A stretch of DNA of 37,893 nucleotides from Candidatus Eiseniibacteriota bacterium. Lineage in GTDB: Bacteria; Eisenbacteria; RBG-16-71-46. The DNA is taken from NCBI GenBank assembly GCA_037917155.1, contig JBAIWU010000496.1, positions 1 to 37,893 on the forward strand. The letters run 5' to 3'. A model generated the notes under the pieces. The model worked only from the letters and a program-made list of their open reading frames with translations. It did not search any database and had not been told where the DNA came from. The translations under genes were made by a program, and so were the position numbers. Shown piece after piece: positions 13,213-34,610 of the stretch. How positions within the stretch are numbered: position 1 is the first letter of the stretch; every line of letters starts with the position of its first letter.

Positions 13213-13284
13213 GCGGCGCACGTTCGCACGCCGCCTGGCGCGGGCGCCATCGCAGATGGCCAGCGCCGCCCGGGCGCGGACGAG

Positions 13285-15472: not shown

Positions 15473-15831
15473 CCCGCGCCCCTCCTCGCGGCCAGGGCTG
15501 TGGACACGCTCACGACCGGCTCCGCACGCGCCCCGGCCACGAGGCCTCTCGAGCGACGAGGCGGCGCGAGAAGGGGCGGCCCGGCCGGATGGCCGCGCAA
15601 GGAACCGGACGACGAGGCAATGGCCCGAAAGTGTGAGGTTGGCACACCCGCGTTTCAACACATTTCGACGGCTCGGGGGGAAGGGCGCGCGAGCGCCTAC
15701 GCCCTTCTCATCCGGCCATCGTCCGCCTACGATGCTCGCGAATCCCTGACGTTCCGCCTCGTTCCGTGCGACTCGTCGCGCCGCCGCCCCGTGCCGCGCC
15801 TCGTCGCCACCCGACCCGCCGGAGGAAACGC

Positions 15832-18528
15832 GTGAGCCAGCGAATCGGCCCCTACCCGATCGAGCGCGAGCTCGGTCGCGGCGGCATGGGCGTCGTCTAC
15901 CTCGCCCGGGATACGCGCCTCGAGAGGGACATCGCGGTCAAGGTGCTGCCGGAGGAGCTGGCTCGGGATCCGGAGCGGCTGGCGCGGTTCGAGCGCGAGG
16001 CGCGGATCCTCGCCTCGCTCCGACATCCGGGCATCTCGGGCATCTACGGCCTCGAGGACGCCGCCGGCCGGCGGATCCTGACGCTCGAATACGTGAAAGG
16101 CGACACGCTCGCCGGGCGCCTCGGACATGGACCGCTTCCGGTCGAGGATTCGCTCGACGTCTGCCGGCAGATCGCAGCCGCCGTCGAGGCGGCGCACGAG
16201 AGCGGCGTCGTCCACCGCGACCTGAAGCCGGGCAACGTGATGATCACGCCGGCGGGCGAGGTCAAGGTGCTGGACTTCGGCCTCGCCAAGGCAGGAGGGG
16301 CCGCGGGCGGGGCGGGCGCGCCCCTTTCGCAGTCGCCGACCTTCGCCCACGATGCCACGCAGGCCGGCGTGATCCTCGGCACCGTGGCCTACATGAGCCC
16401 CGAGCAGGCGCGCGGACGCTCCGTGGATCGCCGCACGGACATCTGGTCGTTCGCATGCGTGCTCTACGAGTGCCTGGCCGGGCGGCAAGCGTTCGGCGGC
16501 GAGACGCTCTCCGACACCATGGCGCGCATCCTCGAGCGCGAGCCCGACTGGAGCGCGCTGCCCGCGCGCACGCCGGCCCGGGTGCGCGAGCTGCTGCTGC
16601 GCTGCTTCGACAAGGACCCGATGCGCCGACTGCGCGACATCGGGGACGCTCGCCTCGAGCTCGAGCGCGCACTCGAAGACGTGCGCGCGGGCGGGCGCGG
16701 CACCGCGCCTGCCGAGGCGCCCGCCGACGCGCCGCGGTCGAGGCGGTCTCGCGCGGGCGGGCCCGTCCTGGCGCTCGCCGGCGTCGGGCTGGGAGTGATC
16801 GCAGGGCTCCTCGTACCCATGCTCGGAACGCGCGCCCCCGAGGTCCCCGTTCGACGCGCGAGCCTCGACCTGCGCGCCGGCGACCCGGTCGCGCTCGAGG
16901 GACCGGCTTCGGCGGCGGACTGGTTCAGCGCGCTCGCGCTGGCGCCGGGTGGAAACCAGCTCGCCTACGTCGCTCGGCATGGCGACTCGTCGGCCCTCGT
17001 CGTGCGCTCGCTCGACGGCGACGCGGGCATCGCGCTGCCGGGAACCGAGGGCGCACGCGATCCGTTCTACTCGCCCGACGGCGCGTGGATCGGCTTCTTC
17101 TCCGGCAACCTGCTGCGGAAGGTCGCGGCGTCGGGGGGCTCGCCGATCACGCTCGGCCAGTTCGACCGGGTCACGGGCGCCGCATGGCTGGCTACGGATC
17201 GTATCCTCGTGCTCGAGAACGACGGCTTCGACCTCGACTGGATCTCGGCCTCGGGGGACACGCCCGAGAGGACGAAGCACCTCGCGACCCAGTTCGGCAC
17301 GCCGGACGTCCTCCCGGGCGGCGCGTGGGTGGTCGGCCAGCTCAGCTCGGGCCAGCTCGCCTTGCTGTCGCTGACGGACGGCGCCGAGCTCGCGATCACG
17401 CGGCGCGGCGTGCTCCCGCCCGACTCGGTCCAGCAGGCCGACCTGCTGTTCGGGGCGAGCCCGCACTGGATCGCCCCGGGCTATCTCGTGTACGGCGCGG
17501 GCGACGGGCAGCTGATGGCGATGCCGTTCGACGGCCGTCGCCATGCCGTGCGCGGTGAATCGGTGCCGGTGCTGACCGGCGTGCGCATGGAATCGGGATA
17601 CGGCTCGGCCGAGTTCGCGATCGCGCGGGACGGCACGCTGGCGTTCGTGCCCGGCGACAACCAGCAGTACGCGCGCGCCGCATTCGTGAGCGCGGCAGGC
17701 CGGGTCGACACGCTGCCGCTGCCGCGCGGCCCGTACACGCAGCCGCGCATCTCCCCCGACGGGACGCAGCTGGCGATGCAGGAGCGCAACCCGATCGGCG
17801 GCTGGCAGGTGCTGCTCGTGGACCTCGCCACCGGGAACCAGCGCACCCTCGACGTGCAGGGCAACTACCGCGCCTTTCCCGCATCCTGGATGCCGTCCGG
17901 TCGCGAGCTGATGATCGGGCTGTGGGATCCGGTGCAGTTCCTCAACTACGGCGCGCGCATCCAGTCGCTCGACACGGGCCGCAGCACCGACCTGAAGCTC
18001 ACGAACATCTCCTACATGACGGTGGCCCCCGACGGGAAGTCGTTCGTCTACTCCAACTGGCGGACGAAGCAGCTGTACCTCCGCTCCCTCGGCCCCGACA
18101 CGACGACCATTGCGGTCCCGGCCGCGGGCATCGCCGCGAGCTTCTCGCCGGACGGCCACTGGCTCGCGTGGGGTGGCACGAGCGGTGCGGTCGAGGCGTC
18201 ACCCGTGCCCCCAACGGGCGCGATCTACCAGGTCGCGGAACGGGGACGCATGCCGGTCTGGACGCCCCGCGGCGATGCGCTCGTCTATCGCGACGGCTCG
18301 TCGTACGACCGCGTGCCGGTCAGCACGTCGGGCGGCTTCCGCGCCGGGCGTCCGACGCGGCTGCTCGAGGGCTCGTTCCTCTCGACGTTCGCGTGGAACC
18401 ACGCCATGAGTCCCGACGGCCGGCTGCTGGTGCTGCTGACCAGCCCGGGCCGCGACGCCGACGCACTGCGGCTCATCACCGGCTTCCCAACGATGGTGAA
18501 GCACGTGGCCGCCAGGCACCCGGGCTGA
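15832..18528 (+). CDS. Transmembrane Hanks-type Ser/Thr kinase with an extracytoplasmic TolB-like (PD40/WD40-like) beta-propeller region
   Basis: GTG 15832 lies 5 nt after GGAGGA (15821-15826). Kinase motifs are GRGGMGVVYLARD, AVKVL, HRDLKPGNVMI, LDFGLA and YMSPEQ. The single TM helix is PVLALAGVGLGVIAGLLVPML. PD40-like repeats follow: FYSPDGAWIGFFS, ISPDGTQLAMQ, VAPDGKSFVYSN, FSPDGHWLAWGG and MSPDGRLLVLL. Confidence 0.85.
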   Translation: MSQRIGPYPIERELGRGGMGVVYLARDTRLERDIAVKVLPEELARDPERLARFEREARILASLRHPGISGIYGLEDAAGRRILTLEYVKGDTLAGRLGHGPLPVEDSLDVCRQIAAAVEAAHESGVVHRDLKPGNVMITPAGEVKVLDFGLAKAGGAAGGAGAPLSQSPTFAHDATQAGVILGTVAYMSPEQARGRSVDRRTDIWSFACVLYECLAGRQAFGGETLSDTMARILEREPDWSALPARTPARVRELLLRCFDKDPMRRLRDIGDARLELERALEDVRAGGRGTAPAEAPADAPRSRRSRAGGPVLALAGVGLGVIAGLLVPMLGTRAPEVPVRRASLDLRAGDPVALEGPASAADWFSALALAPGGNQLAYVARHGDSSALVVRSLDGDAGIALPGTEGARDPFYSPDGAWIGFFSGNLLRKVAASGGSPITLGQFDRVTGAAWLATDRILVLENDGFDLDWISASGDTPERTKHLATQFGTPDVLPGGAWVVGQLSSGQLALLSLTDGAELAITRRGVLPPDSVQQADLLFGASPHWIAPGYLVYGAGDGQLMAMPFDGRRHAVRGESVPVLTGVRMESGYGSAEFAIARDGTLAFVPGDNQQYARAAFVSAAGRVDTLPLPRGPYTQPRISPDGTQLAMQERNPIGGWQVLLVDLATGNQRTLDVQGNYRAFPASWMPSGRELMIGLWDPVQFLNYGARIQSLDTGRSTDLKLTNISYMTVAPDGKSFVYSNWRTKQLYLRSLGPDTTTIAVPAAGIAASFSPDGHWLAWGGTSGAVEASPVPPTGAIYQVAERGRMPVWTPRGDALVYRDGSSYDRVPVSTSGGFRAGRPTRLLEGSFLSTFAWNHAMSPDGRLLVLLTSPGRDADALRLITGFPTMVKHVAARHPG

Positions 18529-18650: not shown

Positions 18651-21600
18651 CTAGCGGATCATGATCACCCGTACAACGCCGCAGTGCCCTGGCGTGCCGA
18701 CCCGGATCATGTAGACCCCGGGACTCGCAAGGGCTCCATTCGCTGTACGCCCGTCCCAGGTCAATTCGTGCGCACCAGCGGCGAACCACTGGCCGTGAGC
18801 GAGCGATGCGATTCGGCGACCGGAGACATCGAGGACTTCAGCGGAGACCTGCCCCGCCATCGGGAGCACGAAGCGCACGTTCGTCGACCCGGCGGTCGGA
18901 TTGGGCACGGCCGGCAGCAGATCGAACAGCCGGGCGCTCTGCGGCGCGATCTGAGGAACCCCGGTGGCCGTCACCAGCTGGAGGCATCCGGGGATCAGGT
19001 GGGCGATGTAGTTGGAGGCCCTGCCGCCCGCCGAGGTGAACTGGCCGCTGGCGTACAGATCGCCGTCGCTGTCGACGACCAGCGACTGCACCGGTGCGTT
19101 CGCACCCGCGCCCAGCGCCGACCACGTGCTGCCGTTCCACACCGCCAGGTTCTGCGCGCTGTTGCCGCCCGCCGCCGTGATCTGCCCGCCCACGTACAGG
19201 TTGCCGCCCGCGTCCAGCGCCACGCCCGCCACGCCCGTGCTGCTCGTCAGTCCCGTTCCCAGCGCCACCCAGCTCGAGCCGTTCCACTCCGCCACGTTGT
19301 TGGCGCTCGCGCCGCCCGCGATCGTGTAGCCCCCGCACGCGTACACGTCGCCGCTGCCGTCCAGCGCCAGCCCGTACACGTAACCGTTCGTCCCCGTTCC
19401 CAGCGCCGACCAGCTGCTCCCGTTCCATGCGGCGATGTAGTGCGTCGTCACGCCGCCCGACGTCCCGAACGTTCCGCCGGCATAGACCAGGTGGTGCACG
19501 TCGTCCACTTTGATCGCCGAGACCGCCGGCGCGATCACCCCGTCCGTCCCCATCCCCGTCCCCAACGCGCCCCAACCCGTCCCGTTCCACTCCGCGATGC
19601 TGTTGGCGCCCGTACCGCCAGCGCTGGTGAAGCTCCCGCCGGCATAGACGTTGCCCGCACCGTCCACCGCCAGCGCGTACACCGTCGCGTTCGTCCCCGA
19701 TCCGAGCGCCGACCAGCTCGAGCCGTTCCACTTCGCCACGTTGCTCGCACCCACGCCACCCGCCGTCGTGAACGCTCCCCCCGCGTAGAGGTTGCCCGCC
19801 GCGTCCACCGCCAGCGCGTACACCGGGCCGTCCATCCCTGTCCCCAGCGCCGTGAACACCTCGCCGTTCCAGCGCGCGACGCGCGCCGCGCTCGTCCCCC
19901 CGGCGACTCCGAAGCTGCCGCCCACGTAGAGGTTGTGCTGGCCGTCCACCGCCAGCACCTGGCCGTGGCCATCCAGCCCCCCCGCACCCGCGAAACGCGA
20001 ATCCCAGCATGCGTTGACCGCTCCGTTGTCCGGCGGCCGGAGCGTCGCGATACGGCTCACCACGGAGCCACACTGCGAGCTCACCTGCACGAAGTACTTG
20101 CCGTAGTCGGAGGGCCCCACGCTGGGGATCGTATACGTTGGGGTCGTTTGCTGGCTGTAGCAGAACGCCAGGTCCGCCCGGCACCAGCCGTAGATGAGCG
20201 GCGTCGCCGAATTCGGATCGCTGGCCGTGACGGCGAACGTCGCCGTCCCCCCCAGCGGCACGACGAGATCCTGTGGTTGCGATGTGATGGACAGCGCCGG
20301 GAAGCACAGCCCGCCGGCCGCGCTCGTATCGGAGACGCAGCAGGCATTCGTCACGACGACATCGTAGACGCCAGCGTCCGCCTGATTCGCGGGGGTGATC
20401 GTGAGCGTCGACGTGTACGCCCCTGAGATCGTGCCCCCTCCGAGCGACGGGCCGTCGAAGAGCGGATAGCCGTCCTTGCGCCACCGGTAGGTCAGCGGCC
20501 CCGCCCCCGTGGCGGCCACGGTGAACGTCGCCGTCGAACCGCTGGTCAGCGACAGGTAGGGCGGCTGAACACTGATCGTCGGCCCGGTGAAGTTGTCGTT
20601 GTGCACCGACGGATACTCCTGGGCCACGGCGCTCAGAACCGTGAGAGGCGATGGCCCGAGCGTCTGGTCGTCGCCGCAGTTGGCCATGTGGATCTTGATG
20701 TCGTACTGGTCACTCGGGATGAGCGCGCCACCGCCGGACTTCGCGCCGTAGTACTTCAACGTGAAGTAGTCCTGACCGGCGTCCTTGAGACCGTTGACGT
20801 CATGCGTGTGGTACTCGTACGCGGTACCACCGTCCCATCGATTGAACACGTAAAAGTCCACGTCCGTCGCATTGTAGATGTAGATCAGGAAAGGATTCGT
20901 CGTACCATCCATGCCGTTCGGATACACGCTGTGCGTGATCGGCGCACGCATGGCACAGGCGTCGCTGCAGATGGTGGACGACTGCGGTGGCGTGCACGTG
21001 CATGGCTCGACCCGCACGTTGTCGAGGAATGCCATGCCGGCGTGTGCTCCAAGAGAGCAGTCGGTGACCAGCATCGTGAGCGTCACGGATGTGCCGACCG
21101 GGTAGGACCTGAGGTCGAATGTCACGTCCCCCCGCCGGTACCAGAAGTTGTTCCCAACGCTGGTCCAGCCGGAATTGGGCTGCACGGCGTCGATGGACGT
21201 CGCCTTGAACGTCGACACCACATTGCCCCCGACCACGAGGTCGATCTCGAAATAGGGCTCCTGCGCGGACGTGTGATCCGAGGCGTACTCGAGCAGGGCG
21301 CCGTAGCTGATGTGGAGGCAGCCGGCGTCGAGATCCGCCTGCGTGATGTTGTCCGTCTGGCTGATGCGTGTGGCGTCGCACCCTCCGCGACTCCCGTTGT
21401 GCAGGAACTCGATATCGTTGATGGCCAGCGTCTGTTGCCCCTCGTAGGGCGTCACGACGAGGCTGGTTGGGCTGATCGCGGGCTGGCCCAGCACGACGTT
21501 GTAGGGCTGCGGGTGATTGGTGCCGTCGCTCGACCAGTTGAACGTGAAGTTGCCGCCGTAGGTCGCGTACTCGACCGTCCACCCGGCGGCCGCCGTGGCG

Positions 21601-21689
21601 TTCTCGAATGTGCCGTTCTGGAAGAGCGCGAGCGCAGGGCGGGGCGCCAGGAGCGCAATCGCGAGAGCCAATCGCCCGACGGGATGCAC
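18651..21689 (-). CDS. Large secreted mosaic surface protein: jelly-roll/CBM-like N-domain, CHU_C-like internal domain, two Ig-like domains, 7-bladed propeller, FlgD-Ig/T9SS type-A-like C-terminal domain
   Basis: GTG 21689 is preceded by AAGGAGG. The signal peptide is VHPVGRLALAIALLAPRPALA. Domain evidence: LFQNGTFENATAAAGW (CBM-like opening), VYPNGMDGTTNPFLIYIY...FYVFNRWDGG, Ig-like LTYRWRKDG...AGVYDVVVTN, and seven WNGSSWSALGTG...VYALAVDxxGNLYAGGxF blades. The tail is LLPAVPNPTAGSTNVRFVLP...LDVSGRRIA...WDGRTANGALASPGVYMIRV...VRVIMIR. Confidence 0.85.
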   Translation of the reverse strand: MHPVGRLALAIALLAPRPALALFQNGTFENATAAAGWTVEYATYGGNFTFNWSSDGTNHPQPYNVVLGQPAISPTSLVVTPYEGQQTLAINDIEFLHNGSRGGCDATRISQTDNITQADLDAGCLHISYGALLEYASDHTSAQEPYFEIDLVVGGNVVSTFKATSIDAVQPNSGWTSVGNNFWYRRGDVTFDLRSYPVGTSVTLTMLVTDCSLGAHAGMAFLDNVRVEPCTCTPPQSSTICSDACAMRAPITHSVYPNGMDGTTNPFLIYIYNATDVDFYVFNRWDGGTAYEYHTHDVNGLKDAGQDYFTLKYYGAKSGGGALIPSDQYDIKIHMANCGDDQTLGPSPLTVLSAVAQEYPSVHNDNFTGPTISVQPPYLSLTSGSTATFTVAATGAGPLTYRWRKDGYPLFDGPSLGGGTISGAYTSTLTITPANQADAGVYDVVVTNACCVSDTSAAGGLCFPALSITSQPQDLVVPLGGTATFAVTASDPNSATPLIYGWCRADLAFCYSQQTTPTYTIPSVGPSDYGKYFVQVSSQCGSVVSRIATLRPPDNGAVNACWDSRFAGAGGLDGHGQVLAVDGQHNLYVGGSFGVAGGTSAARVARWNGEVFTALGTGMDGPVYALAVDAAGNLYAGGAFTTAGGVGASNVAKWNGSSWSALGSGTNATVYALAVDGAGNVYAGGSFTSAGGTGANSIAEWNGTGWGALGTGMGTDGVIAPAVSAIKVDDVHHLVYAGGTFGTSGGVTTHYIAAWNGSSWSALGTGTNGYVYGLALDGSGDVYACGGYTIAGGASANNVAEWNGSSWVALGTGLTSSTGVAGVALDAGGNLYVGGQITAAGGNSAQNLAVWNGSTWSALGAGANAPVQSLVVDSDGDLYASGQFTSAGGRASNYIAHLIPGCLQLVTATGVPQIAPQSARLFDLLPAVPNPTAGSTNVRFVLPMAGQVSAEVLDVSGRRIASLAHGQWFAAGAHELTWDGRTANGALASPGVYMIRVGTPGHCGVVRVIMIR
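18996..20006 (-). repeat. In-frame tandem coding repeats (about 141-162 nt period, 7 copies) encoding the propeller blades
   Basis: The string ccgttcca (rc of the W-N-G codons) recurs at ~19133, 19283, 19423, 19583, 19723 and 19863. The protein blades are 47-54 aa long. Confidence 0.7.
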
Positions 21690-22102
21690 GGTGGTCGACC
21701 TCCTTCGTCAGGCCGGGCTCGGAATGCACATGGATCGGATCATTCGTGCACACGGCCCCCGGCGTCGCGCTGCACGATCGACCGGGGGCCGCTGGCTTCG
21801 CATCCGCATCGCCCACGCGGCTCGGGGACCGCCGGCGGGGCCACCGCGGGTATCCGAGTGCGGGACTGCTGGCGGCGTAGTCCCCCGACCTCGCCGCATG
21901 CCCGGCGATTCCCCCCGCCGGTGCCCCGCGCCACGGATCCCGCGATGGACGTCCCCCCCCCCGCGGTGCGCGCGGCCCTCCGCTCCGGCGTCGACCGGGG
22001 AGCGCGAGCGCATCGCCCACTCATTGCGCCTCCCGGCCCATTCCTAACAACGCGGCGGGAATGCCGCTTCCGGCGTTGAACACGCGTGAGTAGACTCGTG
22101 TC

Positions 22103-22861
22103 ATGTCGTATCCCCCGCATGCGGGTGTGGAACCCCGGTGGCCCATTCGACTCATCGCCCTGTGCTCGGCCGTCCGAAAGGGCGCGGGATCGGGATGTCC
22201 GGAGCCCCGCGAGGAACTCTGGGTCCTGTTGCGTGACAGCCTCCTCCTGGCCATCACGCGCGAGGCGGCCCGGTACCGCGGGATCGGGCGCGAGGACATC
22301 CACGACCTCGCGTCGGCGAAAGCGTTAGAACTCGTCAGCCGGGCGGAACGAGGAGAGTGGGACCCCACGGGCCGATCGACGGGCGAGGTGGTGCTCTACA
22401 TTCGATCCACCGCCCGGCGGGCGTTGCTGCGCCTGATGGATCGCCGACGGGGGCAGACGTCGCTGGACGAGGCCGACGTGGAGGAGGTCGCCGTGGTCGG
22501 ACGCGGCGGGTTGCCGGGCGCCCCGGACCCGCCACCGGAGCGCTCGGCCGAGACGCAGGAGTTCCTGCGGGGGCTGATCGACTGCCTGTCGCGCCTGCGC
22601 GAGCGGGCCCGAACGGTCTGGGTCCTGCGCGGCATACACGACCTGAGCACGCGCGAGATCGCCGCGCATCCCCAGGTGGGGGTCAGCCCCGGCAACGTGG
22701 ATGTCATCCTGATGCGGGTGCGTGCGACGCTACGCGATTGTCTCGGTTCCAAGGGCCTCGAGCCGGGCCATCTGCCGCCCGGGTCGTTCACGCAGATCTG
22801 GCTCGCCATGTCCGGACTCGCGACGAGCCCCGCGGGCGCGGTGGAGGAGGAACACACGTGA
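22103..22861 (+). CDS. ECF-type sigma-70 family RNA polymerase sigma factor
   Basis: The region-2-like segment is ELWVLLRDSLLLAITREAARYRGIGREDIHDLASAKALELV...VLYIRSTARRALLRLMDRRR. The region-4 HTH is RERARTVWVLRGIHDLSTREIAAHPQVGVSPGNVDVILMRVRATLRDCL. There is no obvious SD before ATG 22103. Confidence 0.7.
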   Translation: MSYPPHAGVEPRWPIRLIALCSAVRKGAGSGCPEPREELWVLLRDSLLLAITREAARYRGIGREDIHDLASAKALELVSRAERGEWDPTGRSTGEVVLYIRSTARRALLRLMDRRRGQTSLDEADVEEVAVVGRGGLPGAPDPPPERSAETQEFLRGLIDCLSRLRERARTVWVLRGIHDLSTREIAAHPQVGVSPGNVDVILMRVRATLRDCLGSKGLEPGHLPPGSFTQIWLAMSGLATSPAGAVEEEHT

Positions 22862-23649
22862 CGCTCGATCCCGAGCGCGAACCGCGGTCCCACGTGACCG
22901 ACGACGATCTGCTCGACCTGATACACGGCGCGTCATCCACCGAGCGGCGCGAGGAGGTCGTCTCCCACCTGCTCGGTTGCGAGGCGTGCGACGGCCGCTT
23001 CCGGTCCATCGTGCGCGATCACGAGCGGGGACGGGCACTGGCCGCCGACGCGCTCACGTCCGCCCCCGCAGCGGCCCCCGGGGCGCACGCCGGAGCCGCA
23101 CGGCGGGCGTGGTGGCCGCGCTTCGCGGGGTGGCGCGCCCCGCTCGTGGCGGCGCTCCTGCTCACGATCGGCGGCACGTGGATGCTGGCGCGACATGGCC
23201 CCGGAACCGATCCCGCGGCACGCGCCCGTCCCGAGTGGCTGCCGCAGGTCACGCGCTGGGGCAACCTCCGACAGGCGGCGGAATCGAGTGCCGATTCGAT
23301 CGTCCTCGTGGCGATCGAGGCCTACGAACGCCGGGACCTCCGTCGCGCGGAGAGCCTGCTGCGCACTCCGGGTGCCGTCGGTTCCTACGAATTCCTCCGC
23401 CGGCTCTACCTGGCCAACACGCTGGAGGCGCTGGGGCGATCGGAGGAGGCGCTGCCGGAACTCGTCGGCATGTCCTGGATGCTCCCCGAGCCCTGGCGTG
23501 GCGAGTGGGACTGGACCAGCATGGTGGCCTGCGCGCGCAGCGGCCGGATGGCGAGAGCGGACTCACTGCTCGACGTACTGCGCCGGCGCGACGACGCGAT
23601 CGGCGCGCGTGCCCGCGCGCTCGGAAACGATGCCCGCGGCGGCCGCTGA
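22858..23649 (+). CDS. Zinc-finger (HxxxCxxC) transmembrane anti-sigma factor with a TPR-like outside domain
   Basis: GTG 22858 overlaps the sigma stop (GTGA), and GGAGGAGG lies at 22842-22849. SHLLGCEAC is at 22966-22989. The TM helix is WRAPLVAALLLTIGGTWMLA. The C-terminal helical region is AIEAYERRDLRRAESLL...YLANTLEALGRSEEALPELV. Confidence 0.65.
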   Translation: MTLDPEREPRSHVTDDDLLDLIHGASSTERREEVVSHLLGCEACDGRFRSIVRDHERGRALAADALTSAPAAAPGAHAGAARRAWWPRFAGWRAPLVAALLLTIGGTWMLARHGPGTDPAARARPEWLPQVTRWGNLRQAAESSADSIVLVAIEAYERRDLRRAESLLRTPGAVGSYEFLRRLYLANTLEALGRSEEALPELVGMSWMLPEPWRGEWDWTSMVACARSGRMARADSLLDVLRRRDDAIGARARALGNDARGGR

Positions 23650-26062
23650 GCGAGCGCACCGGTCGCGGACCGGGAGCCGGTGCGCGTGGGTCGTCCGGCT
23701 CGTCCTCGGGCTGCCGCTCCTCGCCTCCGCCTGTGCCCCGACTCCCCCGCCCGGCTCCGCCTACCGGGCGCTGCGCGACACGACCGACTCCCTGCTGGCG
23801 GCCGGCCGGCCCGAGGACGCGGTGCGTTCCCTTCGCGCGGCGGCCACGGGAGAGGCGATGCCGCGCGCCGCATCGTGGGAGCGGGCATGGGCCGCGGCCC
23901 GCGCGCGCGCGCTCGAGCCGGTGCTCGCCGCCCCGCCGGCCGGCCGCGCGGAGCTGGCGGCCACGCGACGACCGCTCGCGCGCGACGTCGCGGAGGAGCC
24001 CGACGACTGGGCGACGCTGCGCCCCGCCCTCGAACGCCAGTTCGCGGCCCGGCGGCGCTGGCTCGGGCCGGACTCGCCCGAGCTCGCGGCGACCATGGTC
24101 GCGCTCGCGCGGCTCGAGCGCACGCGGGGGGACCGCCTGCGCGGACTCGACCTTGATTTCGAGGCGCTGCGGATCCGCCGTGCCGCGTTCGGCGCCCAGT
24201 CACCCGAGGTGGCCGAGTGCCAGCTCATGCTGGGACGCGACCTCAAGCGCGCCTCCTCGCTCGTCGATCGGCCCGAGGGCCACGTGGACACGGCGCTCGC
24301 GATCCGCAGGCTTCGCTTCGGCGAACGGTCGCCGGAATACGCCGAGGCCCTGGCGGCGCAGGCAAACCTGCTGCGTTGGGAGGACCAGCCGCGCCCGGCG
24401 CTGGTGGAGTTCGGGCACGCACGGGATCTGTTCGCCCGCGCCGGGCCACGATACGAGGCGGCGCTCGCCGGGGTCGAGGCCGACATGGCCGTCACCGAGA
24501 TGCGCGAAGGCCACTGGGAGCGGTTGGAGCGGCTCGCGCGGGCCGCTGTCGCCCGGCTCGACGCCCGCGGCGACACGACGTCCGCCGCGAGCGCCTACAG
24601 CCTGAGCGTCCTCGGGCTGGCGCTGAGGCGGATGGAACGATGGGCCGAGGCCCGGGCGGTCCTCGGGCGGGCGACGCGCGTCGAGGAGGCGCGCCGACGC
24701 TCGGCACCCGCGGACTACTTCGTCCGGCTCGAGGCCTACGCCCTGCCCTCGTACCTCGAGCTGGCGATGGTCCAGCTGGCGATGGGGGACTCGGTGGCGG
24801 CGTGGGAGACACAGGAGCGCGGGCTCAGCCGGTGGTGCGCGGAGCGGGCATGGGCGCGCGGCGAGATGGATTCAGCGACGACGTGGAACGGGCTGCTGGC
24901 ACGCGTGCAGGCCCGTCTCACCGACGCCTCCGCGGTCATCGGCTGGCTCGATCCGTTCTACCTGCCCGGCAGCCGGATCAATCCGAACTGGACGTACGTC
25001 ATCCGGCGAACCGGTCCGGTCCACTGGGCGGAGACGCGCGCCGCCGCGTCGGTGGCCCTGCACGACGACGTCGCGACGCGTCTGCGGGGTCGATTGCGGA
25101 TCGCGGCGGCATGGCCGTTCCGGATCACGCGCTTCCCCGACGTCGTGGCGGACCAGCACACGGCCTGGCAGCGACGCTTCCGTGCCGCGGAGCCGTTCCT
25201 CGCCGGCGTGCGCGAGCTGATCGTGATCTCGCCGAACGTCGACTACGAGACGCCGCTGGAGATCGCGATCGACTCGACGGGACGCGCCCTCGACGAGCGC
25301 TTCGCGATCTCCTACTCGCCGAGCGCCCTCCACTTCGCGTCCTCGCCCCGCCCCGATCGCGACGGTCGCTCGCGGCGCGAGTGGTCCAGCCTCGTCCTGA
25401 GGGCCCCGGGCCGGCCGACGCCCGACGGAAGCGACGACCTGGCGGCGGGCGACGCCGAAGTGCGCGAGCTCGTCGGCCGCGTGCGGCACCCCGTGGTGCT
25501 CACGGGGGCGGCGGCCTCCGAGGAGCGGATCCGGTCGCTCGCGCGATCGGGTGCGCTCGCGGAGCTCGACCTGCTGCACGTCACGTCGCACGCCGCCGCG
25601 CCGGACGAGTGGACCGACGAGGTCGGACTGACGCTCGCCGAGGCCATGCCCGGCGGGCATCCGGCGCCGGGCGCACCCGGGGATCGCGACGGAATCCTCA
25701 CCGTGGAGGACATCCGCAACTGGCGCCTGCGCGCCCGGCTGGTGACGCTCGCCAGCTGCACGAGCGCCGGCCAGGTCCCCAAGCACACGGAAGGCCTCCC
25801 GGGACTGGGATCGGGATTTCTCGCGGCGGGCGCTCGCAGCGTACTCGTGAGCCTGTGGCCGGTGGACGACGAGGCCACGGCGATCCTGATGCGCGACTTC
25901 TACGAGGCGCTCTTCGAGGACCGGGCGCGGCCGTGCTCGACCGCCGAGGCGCTGCGCGAGGCGCGCGAGCGCCTCCGCAATTACCGCGACGCCTCCGGCG
26001 ATCGACCCTACGCGCACCCGGCCCGCTGGGGCGGCTACGTGCTGCTCGGCGACCCGGGCTGA
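23630..26062 (+). CDS. TPR-repeat CHAT-domain (caspase-fold) protease with a lipoprotein-type signal peptide
   Basis: ATG 23630 lies 20 nt inside the anti-sigma ORF. The signal is MPAAAAERAHRSRTGSRCAWVVRLVLGLPLLASAC. About 550 aa of TPR-like helical repeats follow. The C-terminal CHAT-like core has LDLLHVTSHAA (His at 25589-25591), LVTLASCTSAG (Cys at 25757-25759) and ...HPARWGGYVLLGDPG. Confidence 0.8.
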   Translation: MPAAAAERAHRSRTGSRCAWVVRLVLGLPLLASACAPTPPPGSAYRALRDTTDSLLAAGRPEDAVRSLRAAATGEAMPRAASWERAWAAARARALEPVLAAPPAGRAELAATRRPLARDVAEEPDDWATLRPALERQFAARRRWLGPDSPELAATMVALARLERTRGDRLRGLDLDFEALRIRRAAFGAQSPEVAECQLMLGRDLKRASSLVDRPEGHVDTALAIRRLRFGERSPEYAEALAAQANLLRWEDQPRPALVEFGHARDLFARAGPRYEAALAGVEADMAVTEMREGHWERLERLARAAVARLDARGDTTSAASAYSLSVLGLALRRMERWAEARAVLGRATRVEEARRRSAPADYFVRLEAYALPSYLELAMVQLAMGDSVAAWETQERGLSRWCAERAWARGEMDSATTWNGLLARVQARLTDASAVIGWLDPFYLPGSRINPNWTYVIRRTGPVHWAETRAAASVALHDDVATRLRGRLRIAAAWPFRITRFPDVVADQHTAWQRRFRAAEPFLAGVRELIVISPNVDYETPLEIAIDSTGRALDERFAISYSPSALHFASSPRPDRDGRSRREWSSLVLRAPGRPTPDGSDDLAAGDAEVRELVGRVRHPVVLTGAAASEERIRSLARSGALAELDLLHVTSHAAAPDEWTDEVGLTLAEAMPGGHPAPGAPGDRDGILTVEDIRNWRLRARLVTLASCTSAGQVPKHTEGLPGLGSGFLAAGARSVLVSLWPVDDEATAILMRDFYEALFEDRARPCSTAEALREARERLRNYRDASGDRPYAHPARWGGYVLLGDPG

Positions 26063-26850: not shown

Positions 26851-28740
26851 TCAGCGCACGATCACCAGTCGCCGGGCGAGCACCCGGCCGTCCGCCTCGA
26901 GCCGCGCGAAGTAGAGACCGCTCGGCGCGAGCGCACCCGTCTCGTCGCGCCCGTCCCATGTCGCCACGTGTTCGCCCGCCGCAACCGTCCCCGAAACCAG
27001 CGCGCCCATGCGCCGGCCCTGCTCGTCGTAGACCACGAGCGATGCGCGTGCGTCCCGCGGCAGGCCAAAGCGCAGCGTCGTGCCACTCCTCGCCGGGTTC
27101 GGGCTCGGCGCCGCGAGGAACACCGCGGGCGGCGGGATCGCGCCTCCCACCCCGGCCGTCGTTCCCGGCGTCACCAACGCGTACCCGCTCTCGTTGCCGT
27201 TCACGTCGAGTGCGGAGAGCTTGTAGTAGGAGCCCGCCGGCCCCGGATCCACGTAGCCGGTGTCGCTCCGGCTCGCGACCAGGTTCGAGGGACCCGGGAT
27301 GAAGCTGCTCGAGCTGCCCCGGTAGAGCTTGTAGTACCAGAAATCCGGCTCGGTGTTGGCGCCCCAGTGCAGGTTGGTCGCCCCGCCCGCGTAGGCGGCG
27401 GTGAACGGAGCGGGCACCGCGGGCGGGAGGTTGTCGACCGAGTAGCCGGAATCCGGGGAACACTCGAAGTAGGTGGTCGGCGTCGCGGTCAGGGCCCGGA
27501 CCAGGAAGACGGAGAGGTTGTTGCCGGTGGCGTTGGAATCCGCGAGGGTCGGCACGACCAATTCGTACGCGTTGTCGCCCTGCGCGCCGGCCGTGACCAC
27601 GTAGTCCCAGCCGTCCAGCCCCACCGCCGCCGGCGAGCTGCGCGGGCCGCCCTGTCCGATCCCGGCGGCCGGCGCGGGCAGCGGATCGATGCGTCGGTAG
27701 ACCGCGTAGCCGGTGATCGGCGACAGCGAGCCGGGGACGTCGAGCCCGTTCGCGGTGAAGCGGATGCGCACCTGGCGGCCCTGGTCGTTGAGCACGTCCG
27801 CGACCGAGGTGATCTCCTGCATGACGCCGAACCTCTCGATGCGGTTGTTGACCGAATCGCAGACGTAGATGTCACCCGTCGCGTCCACCGCCACGCCATA
27901 GGGACCATTGAACTGCCCGGGGGCCGTGCCCAGCGAGCCCCACTGGCTGACGTAGGTCCCCGCGCTCGTGAACTTCTGGATCCGGTTGTTGCCGTAGTCC
28001 GCCACGTAGACGTTGCCGAAGCCGTCCGCGGCGACGCCGACGGGCTCGTTCAGCTGCCCGTTGCCCGAGCCGGCGGAGCCCCACTGCGACATGTAGGCTC
28101 CCGCGGAGCCGAATTTCTCGATGCGGTTGTTGCCGTAATCCGCCACGTAGACGCTTCCCGAGCCGTCCACCGCGATTCCGTACGGCCGATTGAACTGCCC
28201 GTTGCCCGAGCCGGCGGAGCCCCACTGCGTGAGGTACGTGCCCGTGTTGCTGAACTTCTCCACCCGGTTGTTCAGCCAGTCCGTGACGAAGATGTTCCCG
28301 CCGGGTCCCACCGCGACCATATTCGGATACCCGAACTGGCCCGGGCCGGACCCTTGCGTTCCCCACTGGGTGAGGAACGTCCCGCTGCTGCTGAACTTCT
28401 CGATCCGGTAGTTGTCGAAGTCGGCGACATACACGTTTCCGGCGGCGTCCACCGCCGCGCCCGAGGGGAGCAGGAATTGCCCCGTGGCCGAGCCCGAGGA
28501 GCCCCATTGCGTGACGAAGGCACCCATGCCGCTGAACTTCTCGATTCGATTGTTGAGGCAGTCCACGACGTAAACATTCCCGCTCCCGTCCACGGCGATG
28601 CCCTCGGGATCGTCGAACAGTCCGGCCCCCGAGCCCGACGCCCCCCATTGCACCAGGAGACCGGAGCCGTTCTCCGCTGCCGCCGATGACGCATAGATCA
28701 GGAGGGTGAGACCGACGAGACAGCAGGTCGCGCGACGCAT
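26851..28740 (-). CDS. Secreted six-bladed NHL-repeat propeller protein with an FN3-like middle module and a FlgD-Ig/T9SS type-A-like C-terminal domain
   Basis: ATG 28740 is preceded by GGAGG. The signal peptide is MRRATCCLVGLTLLIYASSAAA. There are six repeats of the form GQFxxPxGIAVDGSGNVYVADxxNNRIEKF. The tail reads ...SPNPARSGTTLRFGLPRDARASLVVYDEQGRRM...WDGRDETGALAPSGLYFARLE...RRLVIVR. Confidence 0.85.
   Translation of the reverse strand: MRRATCCLVGLTLLIYASSAAAENGSGLLVQWGASGSGAGLFDDPEGIAVDGSGNVYVVDCLNNRIEKFSGMGAFVTQWGSSGSATGQFLLPSGAAVDAAGNVYVADFDNYRIEKFSSSGTFLTQWGTQGSGPGQFGYPNMVAVGPGGNIFVTDWLNNRVEKFSNTGTYLTQWGSAGSGNGQFNRPYGIAVDGSGSVYVADYGNNRIEKFGSAGAYMSQWGSAGSGNGQLNEPVGVAADGFGNVYVADYGNNRIQKFTSAGTYVSQWGSLGTAPGQFNGPYGVAVDATGDIYVCDSVNNRIERFGVMQEITSVADVLNDQGRQVRIRFTANGLDVPGSLSPITGYAVYRRIDPLPAPAAGIGQGGPRSSPAAVGLDGWDYVVTAGAQGDNAYELVVPTLADSNATGNNLSVFLVRALTATPTTYFECSPDSGYSVDNLPPAVPAPFTAAYAGGATNLHWGANTEPDFWYYKLYRGSSSSFIPGPSNLVASRSDTGYVDPGPAGSYYKLSALDVNGNESGYALVTPGTTAGVGGAIPPPAVFLAAPSPNPARSGTTLRFGLPRDARASLVVYDEQGRRMGALVSGTVAAGEHVATWDGRDETGALAPSGLYFARLEADGRVLARRLVIVR
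27829..28659 (-). repeat. In-frame tandem coding repeats (about 141 nt, 6 copies) encoding the NHL blades
   Basis: The blocks ...NNRIEKF/NNRVEKF/NNRIQKF/NNRIERF recur every ~47 aa between aa 28 and 304. Confidence 0.7.
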
Positions 28741-29168
28741 GGCAGGACCTCCGCGGGGCGAGGAGTGCGGCTGCGTTCGCCCCCCCTCTGGGCGCGCGTC
28801 CGCGCGCCGCGATGGGGCGCAGCCGTCCGGCGTGCCGGACCGGGTCACGGTCACGAACACGCGTGGAACGATCGCCCTCGGTGGGGGTGCTGGCGACCTT
28901 GCTCACAAGGCTACGCCCGGCAGGCACGGCCCGACAGGGCATTCGTCGCGTGGACGAGGACCCGGCTTCGCTCCACGATGCGAAGGCGACGAGACGCCCT
29001 GCCAACGGGGACGGCCGATCCCGGCTCGACGGCCCGCCGCCGGTCCGCGCCGGGCTGGCGTTCGTCGCGCGAATTCACGGGCCGGTGGACAATCCGTGGG
29101 CGAACACGGATCCGCCTTCTAGGCTCGGTACGATCGATCCTTCGCCAGCGCTTGGGAGGTCGGCTGCC

Positions 29169-31085: not shown

Positions 31086-33566
31086 CTAGTGCAGCACCAT
31101 GACCCGCCGCACGAGCACACGCCCCTCAACCTCCAGTCGCGCCAGGTAGAGCCCCGCCCCCACCGCGTGCCCGCGGTCGTCGGTGAGGTTCCATGCGGCT
31201 TCGTGCGCGCCCGCCGGCTGCGCGGCGTCGACCAGGCCCCGCACCCGTCGCCCGCTCACGTCGTAGAGCGTCAGTCGCACGCTGGCGTCCCGCGGAAGGG
31301 CGTAGCCCAGCGTCGTCGGCCCACGCGCAGGATTCGGCGCCGGCGGTGCCAGCGCCAGCTCACGGGGCAGCGACGAACCGTCCACGGCCAGCGCGCCGGC
31401 CGGCAACAGCAGCGTGCTCGCGCTCTCGTTGCCGTGCACGTCCACCGCGGTGAGCCGGTAGTAGTACGGCGCGCCCGCCGCGTCGCTGTACACGGTGTCC
31501 GCCGGGGTGGCGATCCGGTTCGAGGGTGCCGGCACGAAGGACGCGATGGTGCTGCGATACAATCGGTAGCCCGCGAGATCGGGGACCGCGTCGGGGGCCC
31601 AGTGCAGGGACGCCACGCCGCCGCTGTAGGTGCCGGCGAACGGGGCCGGCGGATAGGGCGCCAGGTTGTCCACCGAGTAGCCTGAGTCCGGCGCCGACTG
31701 CCAGAACTCCATCCCGCCCGCGGATTCGGCGACGACCATCAGCGAGGTCTTCTGGTTGCCGGTGCTCATCGAGTCCGAGGTCGTGGGCACGACGGCGCTG
31801 TAGCCGGGAAGCATCAGAGCCTGCTGCGTGGCGACGTAGCCCCAGTACACCACCTGCGCACCGTCGCGGGTCGCGCGCCAGGCCGGCCGCGCAGCCGCCG
31901 GGCCGGACCCCGGCACGTCCGCGCGCTCGAGCGCCGCGCGCGCGGCTGCCGCCGCCACCCCACCGGGAACGCGGCGCCAGATCGTGTACTGGGTCACCGT
32001 GCGCGAAGGGTCCGCGTCGAGGTAGCTGGCCGACCACTGCAGCGAGACCTGCCCGCCATTGTCGTTCGGCACGTCGGCGATCGAGGTGATGCGCGGGCGC
32101 GCGTCGCCCAGCGCGCCGAACTGGTCCAGGTTCTGCGCGTAGATGCCCGCGTAGCCGGACCACGGCGTGGACCCGCGCATGTCGCCCCAGGCGAACAACG
32201 CCCCGGCGCTGCCGTCGGCCACCGTCGCCGGCGCCTGGGAGCCGGAGTCGATCAGGCCCCCCATGTCGACCGGATTCCCCCCGTACGCCCAGCCCGGCGC
32301 GATGTTGCCGTTGCCCAGCACGCGCACCGCGTAGAGCAGGTAGTCCAGCCCGAGCCGGTCATCCAGGAACGCGATCACCGCGCCGCCCGTGCCGTCGGAG
32401 ACCATGGTCTCGGGCAACTGGTTCACGGGCGCCACCGCCAGGGCCACGCCGCCCGCCGGCCAGCCCGCGTACGGCAGCGCGTAAGGGCCGAACCGCTGCG
32501 CGAACAGGTCCGGCGATCCGTAGCGGAAGTCATCGAATGCGAGGAAGAGGCCGCCGCTGCCGTCGTTCATCGCCAGGGGTCCGCTCTGGTTCACGTTCTG
32601 CTCGGGGACGAGGAACTTGTAGCCGCCCCAGGTCGGGTCGTTCGTGCCGTTGGCGAGGAAGTGGTTGCCGCTGAGGTTGGTGTACGAGACGGGACCGTTG
32701 TCGGCGCAAACGGCGTACACGCCGCCGGAGTTGTCGGGCGCGATATCGAAGCCGTACTGGTTGAATCCCGAGCCCGTGCCGATGTAGAGCGGCCCCCAGA
32801 CGGTCCCGCCACTCGAGTTGAACCGCGCGACCTTCTGGTGCTGCAGGCTCCCGTTGTCGTTGTCGGACCAGCCGAGGAAGAAGCCGCCGCTGCCGTCCGG
32901 CAGGGCCTTCGGGAAGTTCTGGATCCCCACCGGCGTGTAGAGCCCGTTCGACCACGCCAGCGCTCCGGCCGCAGTGACGTGTGCGCCGTAGATGTCCTGG
33001 TCGCTGGTGCCGTACTGCAGCGTCCAGACGACGAACGCGCCGCCCGCGCCGTCGGGGGTCATGGTCGGCGAGTACTCGTCCTTGATCGCGGAGACGCCGC
33101 TGGTCGAGACGAGCAACCCGTTCGAGTTGAAGCCCGTCGCGTACGTGGCGCCGCCCGTCACGCGGGTGAGGTAGATGTCGCGGGTCGTGCCGCGCACGTC
33201 GGACCACGCCACGTACGCGCCGCCCGCACCGTCGCCCAGCAAGGTCGGCGTGTACTCGCCGGCCGCATTGGCGCACACCTGCAGCCCGCCCGCAGGCCAA
33301 CCCGCGAACACGGCCCCCGTGCCGGTGAGGCGCTGGACGTAGACGTGCGAGAGGCCGGCCCGCGTGTCGACCCACGTGACCAAGATGCCCCCGCTGCCGT
33401 CGGAGACCGCGCCGCCGAACTGGGTCATGAAGCCGGTCGGCGCCACGGTGACCGGGGTGTAGGCGTCGCTCCCGAACTGGGCGCGGGCGGGGATGGCGAT
33501 CGCGACGGTCAGCGCGGCGGCGAGCAGGGCGACGATGCGGGAGCGAATGGCGCCTGGGCGCGACAT
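31086..33566 (-). CDS. Secreted repeat protein: eight DGxGG-type repeats (probable propeller), then the same FN3-like module and FlgD-Ig/T9SS type-A-like C-terminal domain as 26851..28740
   Basis: ATG 33566 gives the signal peptide MSRPGAIRSRIVALLAAALTVAIAIPARA. The repeats are of the form SDGSGGILVTWVDTRAG..HVYVQRL, GDGAGGAYVAWSDVRGTTRDIYLTRV and so on. The tail is ITSIADVPNDNGGQVSLQW...APDSGYSVDNLAP...YRLYRS...VDVHGNES...APNPARGPTTLGYALPRDASVRLTLYDVSGRRV...RRVMVLH. Confidence 0.85.
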   Translation of the reverse strand: MSRPGAIRSRIVALLAAALTVAIAIPARAQFGSDAYTPVTVAPTGFMTQFGGAVSDGSGGILVTWVDTRAGLSHVYVQRLTGTGAVFAGWPAGGLQVCANAAGEYTPTLLGDGAGGAYVAWSDVRGTTRDIYLTRVTGGATYATGFNSNGLLVSTSGVSAIKDEYSPTMTPDGAGGAFVVWTLQYGTSDQDIYGAHVTAAGALAWSNGLYTPVGIQNFPKALPDGSGGFFLGWSDNDNGSLQHQKVARFNSSGGTVWGPLYIGTGSGFNQYGFDIAPDNSGGVYAVCADNGPVSYTNLSGNHFLANGTNDPTWGGYKFLVPEQNVNQSGPLAMNDGSGGLFLAFDDFRYGSPDLFAQRFGPYALPYAGWPAGGVALAVAPVNQLPETMVSDGTGGAVIAFLDDRLGLDYLLYAVRVLGNGNIAPGWAYGGNPVDMGGLIDSGSQAPATVADGSAGALFAWGDMRGSTPWSGYAGIYAQNLDQFGALGDARPRITSIADVPNDNGGQVSLQWSASYLDADPSRTVTQYTIWRRVPGGVAAAAARAALERADVPGSGPAAARPAWRATRDGAQVVYWGYVATQQALMLPGYSAVVPTTSDSMSTGNQKTSLMVVAESAGGMEFWQSAPDSGYSVDNLAPYPPAPFAGTYSGGVASLHWAPDAVPDLAGYRLYRSTIASFVPAPSNRIATPADTVYSDAAGAPYYYRLTAVDVHGNESASTLLLPAGALAVDGSSLPRELALAPPAPNPARGPTTLGYALPRDASVRLTLYDVSGRRVRGLVDAAQPAGAHEAAWNLTDDRGHAVGAGLYLARLEVEGRVLVRRVMVLH
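32112..33434 (-). repeat. In-frame tandem coding repeats (about 45-60 aa, 8 copies) of the DGxGG(a/v)xxxW-D-R...(D)IY-QR type
   Basis: Repeat cores sit at about aa 56, 112, 172, 224, 278, 335, 391 and 451 of the protein. Confidence 0.65.
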
Positions 33567-34372: not shown

Positions 34373-34610
34373 GCGTGTCCTCCGTTCGGTTTCGTGGAGC
34401 TGGTTCGGGCGTTGTCCCGATCGACCGTGGGGATCGCGGAGCACTCCGAGGCGACGGTCACCTGTCCGCGAACTCGGGTCAAGCCGGCAGCGCGGCCGGT
34501 CGCCCGCGCCGGCCGAATCCCGTAGTCTCCCCGGATGCTGCCCGGCGCCCACACCCGGCGGCTCGCCCCCGCTGGATAGGTCCGCCCGCATTGCCTTCAG
34601 GAGACCGCCC

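Follow-up and report, generated by a model that had tools for sequence, protein, structure and literature searches.

A conserved three-gene locus encoding an ECF-type sigma factor, a zinc-binding anti-sigma factor and an exported TPR-CHAT caspase-like protein: a candidate envelope signalling module in Candidatus Eisenbacteria and other bacteria

In a 37,893-nucleotide contig of a Candidatus Eiseniibacteriota bacterium (GenBank assembly GCA_037917155.1, contig JBAIWU010000496.1; hereafter the window, meaning the whole stretch of DNA analysed, with a G+C content of 71%), a trio of co-directional open reading frames (ORFs) was found on the forward strand at positions 22103-22861, 22858-23649 and 23630-26062. 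They encode a divergent sigma factor of the extracytoplasmic function (ECF) type (gene 1), an anti-sigma factor of the zinc-binding anti-sigma (ZAS) type (gene 2) and a predicted exported caspase-like protease in which tetratricopeptide repeats (TPRs) precede a CHAT domain (gene 3). The G+C content at third codon positions, taken by frame, is 0.85, 0.86 and 0.91 for genes 1, 2 and 3, respectively, indicating that all three ORFs are coding. Neighbouring genes overlap by 4 nt and 20 nt. The TGA stop codon of the sigma gene (22859-22861) overlaps the GTG start codon of the anti-sigma gene (22858-22860) in a 4-nt GTGA, and the ATG of gene 3 at 23630 lies 20 nt within gene 2, the stop codon of which is at 23647-23649. 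The coordinates of both junctions agree with a preliminary description of this DNA. The Shine-Dalgarno-like sequence GGAGGAGG, read directly in the sequence 7 nt 5' of the anti-sigma GTG, is located at 22843-22850 (+), one base off the position reported there (22842-22849).

Gene 1 (22103-22861, +) encodes a protein of 252 aa, which matched the NCBIfam model TIGR02937 (sigma70-ECF) with 58 bits over residues 49-214 (cut-off 42.9) and the Pfam model Sigma70_r4_2 with 28.8 bits over residues 158-210 (cut-off 25.7), the latter identifying sigma region 4. ECF-like regions 2 and 4 had both been claimed for this protein; region 4 is upheld by these profiles, whereas Pfam Sigma70_r2 gave no match to it in the Pfam scan. 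A profile built from 13 members of the sigma family weakly matched the solved ECF sigma factors AlgU, SigE, CnrH and SigW, from region 2.4 to region 4. Sigma region 2 is represented solely by the TIGR02937 match and, from 2.4 onward, by this profile. Thus, with Sigma70_r2 undetected and only a weak match to solved ECF sigma factors, gene 1 is considered a divergent ECF-type sigma factor. When the single gene 1 sequence was searched against the PDB, a weak match to SigF alone was obtained, and the best NCBIfam equivalog matches were far under their cut-offs. Members of the sigma family are about 250 aa long and carry conserved extensions at both ends. In the family alignment, W13-P...L and W40 are conserved in the N-terminal extension and K-G...P-G-x-F229-x2-L-W233 in the C-terminal tail, as are Cys161 and Cys213. 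These N- and C-terminal extensions may be regulatory.

Gene 2 (22858-23649, +), homologues of which directly follow the sigma gene, encodes a single-pass ZAS-type anti-sigma factor of 263 aa. Its predicted cytoplasmic zinc-binding anti-sigma domain (22891-22989, +) contains His12 and the motif His37-x3-Cys41-x2-Cys44. Among 155 members of the anti-sigma family, His12 is conserved in 97%, His37 in 98%, and Cys41 and Cys44 in 100%, and the H-x3-C-x2-C motif is present in 153 of them. By motif, fold and gene context, gene 2 is placed in class I of the ZAS (zf-HC2) factors, although the profile check suggested in the preliminary description, with Pfam zf-HC2 (PF13490), gave scores (17.7 bits for gene 2 and 19.9 bits for its homologue in L001; loci of relatives are cited by our numbers) under the gathering cut-off of 22.2. 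A PDB search with the single anti-sigma sequence yielded no match. The AlphaFold2 (AF2) model of the protein, with a predicted local distance difference test score (pLDDT) of 79.5, comprises a three-helix N-terminal domain (pLDDT >90), a disordered stretch, a helix at residues 94-112, a linker, and a compact helical domain at residues 144-261. The single helix coincides with the sole hydrophobic segment of the protein, residues 93-112 (23134-23193, +; Kyte-Doolittle hydropathy over 19 residues, KD19, 1.45), the position of which is conserved. The anti-sigma factor is hence predicted, on the basis of the model, to have its N-terminus inside, one transmembrane helix, and its TPR domain outside. 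The cysteine motif, the one transmembrane helix and the TPR-like outer domain were all part of the original reading of this gene.

On the outer side of the membrane, a juxtamembrane linker (23236-23271, +) carries a W-L-P motif at residues 127-129 and, nine residues after Pro129, Arg138. Pro129 and Arg138 are conserved in 88% and 92% of the 155 family members, respectively, whereas the linker around them is variable and has low pLDDT, a pattern that makes this segment a candidate docking or cleavage site. It is followed by a domain of three TPR-like units (residues 144-261; 23287-23640, +), which was modelled with pLDDT >90 over most of its length. In Foldseek searches, this domain matched peptide-binding three-TPR modules, including PcrH, SycD and designed TPRs, with target-normalised TM-scores of 0.63-0.77, and conservation of its motifs AY, RRLYL and LPEPW reaches 94% or more in the same 155 members.

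Gene 3 (23630-26062, +) encodes a protein of 810 aa, predicted to be an exported TPR-CHAT caspase-like protease. Its C-terminal part (residues 524-808; 25199-26053, +) matched the Pfam CHAT model PF12770 with 150 bits (E 1.3e-43), and TPR_12 was detected with 45.7 bits, so both domain assignments first proposed for gene 3 stood up to profile searches. The TPR-like helical superhelix, supported by the AF2 model and TPR_12, covers residues 43-430 (23756-24919, +), that is, about 390 aa instead of the approximately 550 aa originally estimated, and is presumed to be a ligand- or partner-binding sensor. A profile of the CHAT family also matched the TPRs of kinesin light chains. In the AF2 model (pLDDT 85.6, predicted TM-score 0.87), helical repeats precede the protease domain. 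The best PDB folds returned by Foldseek were Csx29, the TPR-CHAT protease of type III-E CRISPR (clustered regularly interspaced short palindromic repeats) systems (8eey_B), and the anti-sigma factor DdvA (8rot_A), tied at E 1.2e-13 and followed by separases, all with a probability of 1.00.

The His and Cys residues expected of a CHAT protease are both present. Searching the PDB with a 17-member CHAT-domain profile returned DdvA as the best match (E 5.8e-11), in which the predicted catalytic residues His654 (25589-25591, +) and Cys710 (25757-25759, +) are aligned with His862 and Cys907, which form the catalytic dyad of DdvA (PMC11506125). The His and Cys of the gRAMP TPR-CHAT protein also align with His654 and Cys710, and type III-E TPR-CHAT proteins and separase were matched at E values of 1e-5 to 1e-4. 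PDB searches with the whole CHAT protein, a four-member profile or the isolated CHAT domain returned TPR proteins or no match. His654 and Cys710, put forward earlier as the candidate dyad, are invariant in 46 CHAT proteins. Moreover, 14 of the 15 aligned CHAT proteins that are linked to a trio retain the dyad; the L016 row of that alignment is a different ORF from the trio-linked one of the same locus, which keeps the dyad. This conservation suggests that the trio-linked CHAT proteins are not pseudo-enzymes.

At the N-terminus of gene 3, a lipoprotein-type signal peptide (23630-23734, +) ends in L-A-S-A-Cys35 after a hydrophobic core, which lies within residues 18-36, the only stretch of the protein that is hydrophobic (KD19 1.87). 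The signal, already recognized in the preliminary description, is conserved in relatives, and by pattern and hydrophobicity prediction every CHAT family member examined has a signal peptide or a lipobox. The lipoboxes of the relatives read LAGC, LGAC, LVGC, LSGC, LTGC, LVAC, FASC or SLGC, and other members have a Sec signal. By pattern matching, a classical L-[AVSTG]-G-C or L-[GV]-A-C box occurs at the aligned position in L002, L003, L005, L006, L011-14 and L032, and plain Sec signals were found in the CHAT proteins of L016, L021, L023 and L035. In the family, the majority of CHAT proteins are lipoproteins that lack Asp at position +2, a feature that would allow anchoring in the outer membrane. 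Given the N-terminal signal of gene 3 and the outside TPR domain of the anti-sigma factor, the two proteins are predicted to share an extracytoplasmic compartment, in line with what had been supposed from the DNA of this locus.

The trio was found to recur in other genomes. An anti-sigma gene is linked to a CHAT gene in 18 distinct loci (the window, L001-3, L005, L011-14, L016, L020-23, L032, L035, L037 and L038) from Candidatus Eisenbacteria, Acidobacteriota and other metagenome-assembled genomes (MAGs), and the closest relatives of the window are Candidatus Eisenbacteria MAGs. Close homologues are few and all metagenomic, with identities of 34-50% for the CHAT protein and 31-60% for the anti-sigma factor. 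Among their contigs, each one of sufficient length carries the trio with overlapping junctions. L001 and L005 are complete trios, L002 and L003 contain the anti-sigma/CHAT junction, and in L004 and L006-8 the sigma and anti-sigma genes are followed by the N-terminus of an exported TPR/lipoprotein gene that is interrupted by the contig end. A scan of species-representative genomes for the CHAT family gave 22 loci, in which neighbouring sigma and anti-sigma genes were detected by hidden Markov models (HMMs) built on the trio proteins. Both genes were present beside the CHAT gene in four Eisenbacteria MAGs and one unclassified MAG (L011-14 and L020), in L021 and L023 (Acidobacteriota) and in L022 (Polarisedimenticolia). 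In L016, the anti-sigma gene alone was detected. The same HMM search found neither sigma nor anti-sigma genes near the more distant TPR-CHAT paralogues L017-19 and L026-31.

The linkage was also seen from the side of the anti-sigma factor, as six of the seven informative loci reached from it alone have a CHAT gene. Among the distant anti-sigma members sampled, L035 and L038 are co-directional trios, L032 is a trio with a convergent CHAT gene, and L037 is a convergent pair; together with L022, L032 and L037 are the loci in which the CHAT gene is convergent rather than co-directional. The order of sigma and then anti-sigma is observed in the window, L001, L004-6, L011-14, L020-23, L032, L034, L035 and L038, and, with L016 as the sole exception, the anti-sigma homologue directly follows the sigma gene wherever a locus is informative. 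Overlapping or abutting junctions recur across independent contigs, while the flanking genes vary. Since the arrangement recurs in many independent contigs amid differing flanks, the trio is a conserved functional unit and not a chance juxtaposition. The recurrent start/stop overlaps are typical of stoichiometric partners. The conservation of synteny in relatives, on which the preliminary description had staked its proposal, therefore extends across phyla and survives gene rearrangements.

To gauge the size of the anti-sigma family, we consider a profile search against 1.84 billion representative proteins, which gave 2,670 matches at a threshold of E ≤0.001, falling to 525 at E ≤1e-10 and to 334 at E ≤1e-30, the family thus numbering at least 334 clusters at 50% identity. 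The top 150 matches are all 222-334 aa in length, so none of these is fused to a CHAT domain. The family members looked up are annotated as hypothetical proteins only. A metagenome scan with the anti-sigma alignment returned one contig of 1.6 kb. As to the CHAT proteins, L018 contains two tandem TPR-CHAT paralogues (5638-8709 and 8726-12028) without a sigma or anti-sigma gene, and L035 has, about 5 kb 5' of its trio, a second CHAT gene (L035 1-384, -; L035/L036). These lineages therefore encode several CHAT proteins, whether exported or non-exported.

Upstream of the sigma gene, a -10-like hexamer, TAGACT, is located at 22091-22096 (+), 6 nt 5' of the sigma ATG, and a TAnnnT hexamer precedes the sigma start codon by 4-7 nt in most loci. 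This short distance suggests that the sigma mRNA is leaderless and is transcribed from a housekeeping-type promoter rather than from a classical autoregulated ECF promoter. The upstream regions of L004 and L023 carry TTGACC-17-TACGAC. A conserved motif, TTCCTAACA (family form TYCTRAC), at 22041-22049 (+) is a possible regulatory site or ECF-type -35 element. TYCTRAC precedes the -10-like hexamer by 25-55 nt in seven of the 13 sigma upstream regions compared (the window, L001, L004, L005, L006, L022 and L023) and is absent from L011-14, L020 and L021. The form GGCC(C/G)ATTCCTAACAA is common to the window and to the distant Polarisedimenticolia locus L022. The motif occurs once in the window, at 22041-22049, where a second copy was not found. 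An ECF-type autoregulated promoter was rejected, as a k-mer pair search of the sigma upstream regions gave no shared -35/-10 pair; a strict scan for sigma-70 promoters and terminators gave no match.

Among characterized systems, DdvS/DdvA of Myxococcus xanthus resembles the trio most. DdvA, the single anti-sigma factor known to carry a caspase-like TPR-CHAT domain, is a transmembrane protein that joins an N-terminal zinc anti-sigma domain to this periplasmic part (2018, 2024; PMC11506125; PMC6061681). Its CHAT active site points towards the juxtamembrane linker of the other protomer, its partner, and loss of the TPR-CHAT part turns DdvA into a substrate of RseP (PMC11506125). Both DdvS/DdvA and the trio comprise an ECF sigma factor with an adjacent zinc anti-sigma domain, one transmembrane helix, a TPR superhelix on the extracytoplasmic side and a CHAT domain in which the His-Cys dyad is intact. 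For gene 3, DdvA is the best PDB match by profile and shares the best fold match with Csx29 (TM-score 0.46, 17% identity). Thus, by sequence profile DdvA/DdvS, not Csx29/Csx30, is the closest known system, with a tie by fold. Different from DdvA, the TPR-CHAT protein here is a separate, predicted exported lipoprotein, and the anti-sigma factor keeps a three-TPR domain of about 120 aa. Without the single polypeptide that characterizes DdvA, the trio appears to work like DdvA but is not a DdvA-type member. The taxa differ too, in that fused DdvA-like proteins have been reported only from Myxococcota and one Comamonas (PMC11506125), whereas the trio is found in Eisenbacteria, Acidobacteriota and other MAGs. 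Unlike DdvA, the trio has no defence island of the cyclic oligonucleotide-based antiphage signalling system (CBASS) or CRISPR type beside it, according to the scans of the window for arrays and cas genes and with PADLOC. In addition, the predicted zinc site is His/His/Cys/Cys in the trio anti-sigma factor and CHCC in DdvA, and the sigma factor, at about 250 aa with its extensions, is longer than DdvS, which has 182 aa or slightly more (sigma4 construct DdvS93-182). Full-text literature searches gave no description of an operon of sigma factor, anti-sigma factor and separate exported TPR-CHAT protein.

Classical regulated intramembrane proteolysis of anti-sigma factors is exemplified by RseA/DegS/RseP with RseB and by FecR/Prc/RseP in cell-surface signalling. 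The trio resembles these pathways in having a single-pass anti-sigma factor with an outside domain, signal-dependent site-1 and then site-2 cleavage as the presumed course of events, and an accessory partner on the outside. However, the classical site-1 proteases DegS and Prc are serine proteases that are neither dedicated nor co-encoded, whereas the trio co-encodes a translationally coupled cysteine protease of the caspase fold. In the actinobacterial group ECF54, CHAT-domain proteins occur in the conserved neighbourhood and proteolytic control has been proposed, with no recognizable anti-sigma factor (PMC8999054). ECF54 genes are accompanied by carboxypeptidase and subtilase genes, whereas the trio has a ZAS anti-sigma gene between the sigma and CHAT genes. 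The ECF re-classification study (PMC7826278) makes no mention of CHAT in its main text. A tripartite logic of protease, anti-sigma factor and sigma factor is also shared with CalpL-CalpT-CalpS, a SAVED-Lon protease, anti-sigma factor and ECF-like sigma factor of type III CRISPR systems (10.1101/2024.05.08.593097), but that protease is Lon-type, cytoplasmic and activated by cyclic oligoadenylate, and its parts are unrelated in sequence to those of the trio.

The analysis establishes which genes the trio comprises, that the dyad is intact and that linkage is conserved, and it predicts the topology of the proteins. From these results we infer sigma/anti-sigma binding, an interaction between the CHAT protein and the anti-sigma factor, cleavage, a cue and a regulon, which could be connected in the following way. 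The ECF-type sigma factor would be held inactive at the membrane by the zinc-binding N-terminal domain of the anti-sigma factor, whose short linker and small, peptide-binding TPR domain would be exposed on the outer side of the membrane. The gene 3 protein, translationally coupled to gene 2, would be exported and usually lipid-anchored, with the TPR superhelix as sensor and the CHAT domain as catalyst. Binding of a cue, probably a protein or peptide, would activate the CHAT protease, which would then cut the outside part of the anti-sigma factor (site-1 cleavage), with the stretch of juxtamembrane linker around W-L-P and Arg138 as the best candidate site. What is left would be removed by a site-2 protease of the RseP type and by cytoplasmic proteases, thereby setting the sigma factor free. 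We therefore propose, at a probability of roughly 45%, that the trio is a three-gene envelope signalling module and a split, trans-acting counterpart of DdvS/DdvA, in which the exported CHAT protein serves as the signal-gated site-1 protease of the anti-sigma factor. A bolder generalization, which we advance tentatively and would not yet bet on, is that the trio represents a large unannotated trans-envelope class, in which each ZAS anti-sigma factor has a dedicated exported and possibly outer-membrane-anchored CHAT protein as its ligand-gated site-1 protease, cutting at the conserved juxtamembrane Arg of LP-x8-R. Such systems would amount to an extracytoplasmic, caspase-like cascade that turns on an ECF sigma factor independently of CRISPR or other known defence systems, and fused DdvA would be a derived special case of them.

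Several observations weigh against a signal-gated CHAT protease acting on the anti-sigma factor. The precedent itself is incomplete, because signal-induced self-cleavage by CHAT has been put forward for DdvA as the site-1 step before RseP as a proposal only (PMC11506125; PMC6061681), and the H862A and C907A variants of DdvA behaved like the wild type in unstimulated cells (PMC11506125). Proof of DdvA self-cleavage is impeded by the missing cue and by the fact that a single membrane protein is at once enzyme and substrate. The anti-sigma outside domain showed no specific similarity to the scaffold region of DdvA in Foldseek searches, where the matches were to generic TPR modules only, and thus gene fission of a DdvA-like ancestor is not shown. 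The transmembrane helix of the anti-sigma factor is moderately hydrophobic (KD19 1.45), and the anti-sigma factor's own TPR domain could be the sensor. The linkage has exceptions as well: in L016 (4399-8109), an M28/FlgD_ig peptidase gene precedes an anti-sigma-like gene and a CHAT gene, and no sigma gene lies directly upstream, and in L034 (642-2965), the sigma and anti-sigma genes are followed, after a gap of 378 nt, by a gene for a different secreted protein in place of CHAT.

Two other arrangements of the same parts have to be compared with cleavage of the anti-sigma factor by the CHAT protein. The exported TPR-CHAT protein might control the anti-sigma factor by binding its TPR domain or linker without cutting it, either as an RseB-like shield from a general site-1 protease or as an outer-membrane relay of the kind that links FecA to FecR, with the protease directed at an incoming signal protein or at itself. 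The conserved linkage and translational coupling would suit any stable partnership of this sort, TPR modules, which are typical protein-binding domains, are present in both partners, and the scarcity of Asp at +2 in most family lipoproteins is compatible with a protein anchored in the outer membrane. We nevertheless regard control by binding as rather unlikely, because the strict conservation of the dyad in trio-linked members indicates that proteolysis matters, a conserved Arg in a flexible linker is more easily understood as a processing site, and it is the juxtamembrane linker that the DdvA active site faces. Alternatively, the CHAT lipoprotein might be the output of the pathway: the chief member of the regulon of an autoregulated sigma/anti-sigma operon, made on demand as an envelope or surface protease against secreted cargo with FlgD_ig tails or foreign proteins, while the anti-sigma factor senses the cue alone. 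Effector genes often sit within ECF operons, TPR-CHAT paralogues without nearby sigma or anti-sigma genes exist (L017-19), and large secreted FlgD_ig-tailed proteins adjoin the trio in 6 of about 16 loci. The last frequency is, however, near the window background of about 11%. The anti-sigma and CHAT junctions overlap, and the pair persists when inverted (L022, L032 and L037) and without an adjacent sigma gene (L016), which speaks for a direct link between the anti-sigma factor and the CHAT protein; fused DdvA further shows that both functions can reside in one protein. A role of the CHAT protein as output is accordingly unlikely in our judgement.

The remaining explanation, that the trio is an accessory of a type III-E CRISPR system (Csx29/Csx30/RpoE-like) or of another nearby defence island, is contradicted by the data and highly improbable. 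Its appeal lies in Craspase, in which Cas7-11 works with Csx29, a TPR-CHAT protease that cleaves Csx30, a regulator of an RpoE-type sigma factor (PMC10028731), and which was taken in the preliminary description as the nearest parallel. Gene 3 has the same fold as Csx29 (8eey_B, E 1.2e-13, a tied best match) and would likewise be tied to the control of an ECF-like sigma factor through proteolysis of an inhibitor, and protease-controlled ECF-like sigma factors are known in type III systems (PMC10028731; 10.1101/2024.05.08.593097). However, the similarity of the CHAT-domain profile to Csx29 is weak (E 1.2e-4, against 5.8e-11 for DdvA), so DdvA replaces Csx29 as the closer relative. Csx29, a cytoplasmic protein in complex with a CRISPR effector, is switched on by target RNA, and Csx30 is no ZAS transmembrane anti-sigma factor, whereas the gene 3 protein is predicted to be exported and has no cas genes or arrays around it. 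Indeed, a CRISPR-like repeat array was not found in the 38-kb window, cas and defence families gave no match among 17 window ORFs scanned with Pfam and five, including the trio, scanned with PADLOC, and none was present among the called genes in the flanks of relatives looked up, where unrelated housekeeping or secreted-protein genes are located. The earlier statement that the 38 kb hold neither a cas gene nor a CRISPR array is thus correct, and no Cas7-11 was found.

The genes around the trio in the window encode Ser/Thr kinases, methyltransferases, hydrolases, a tricorn-like protease and secreted proteins with FlgD_ig tails. Three large secreted proteins share the same C-terminal FlgD_ig-type tail, probably a sorting domain, and are encoded at 18651-21689 (-), 26851-28860 (-) and 31086-33566 (-). 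The first of these is the divergent 1012-aa protein with Ig, beta-propeller and FlgD_ig domains, which had been suggested as a regulon member of the sigma factor. This suggestion was dropped: no orthologue of the protein was found beside other trios, where only the FlgD_ig tail recurs, at about background frequency, and the upstream motif is single in the window. The FlgD_ig-tailed neighbours in the 6 of about 16 trio loci are S8 or M28 peptidases and Kelch or Ig propellers, and about 11% of the window genes carry the tail. The only sizeable tandem repeat of the window, a 141-bp unit in about three copies at 27829-28316, lies inside an NHL-repeat gene and stems from repeats of the protein rather than from a CRISPR-like array. 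Two Ser/Thr kinases are encoded at 15766-18528 (+) and 3-1763 (-). PD40 beta-propeller repeats form the C-terminal part of one, and the other has an alpha/beta-hydrolase domain; the kinase gene at 15766-18528 (+) is two genes upstream of the trio, and other loci gave no sign of a link to the trio. At the window edge, a 1203-aa tricorn-like protease (34269-37880, +) contains PD40 repeats, Tricorn_C1, PDZ and Peptidase_S41, and together with a PDZ-hydrolase (11845-13413, -) it represents further envelope proteases near the locus. Two ORFs, of 932 aa at 3553-6351 (+) and 267 aa at 33878-34681 (-), have coding-type third-position G+C content and no Pfam or PADLOC match.

Taken together, the observation in the preliminary description is confirmed and its interpretation is supported in part. 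The module is real, conserved and CRISPR-independent, and its concept has a fused precedent in DdvA; what is new is a widespread, unannotated, two-protein and trans-acting form of DdvA-like logic, present as separate proteins in several poorly studied phyla. The routes from outside cues to ECF sigma factors are known for few protease types. With enzyme and putative substrate encoded as two separate proteins, the split system makes the question of DdvA-type cleavage directly testable. If the proposed mechanism is true, a cysteine-protease branch would be added to the regulated proteolysis of anti-sigma factors, and bacterial caspase-fold enzymes would be tied to ordinary envelope signalling, beyond immunity or cell death.

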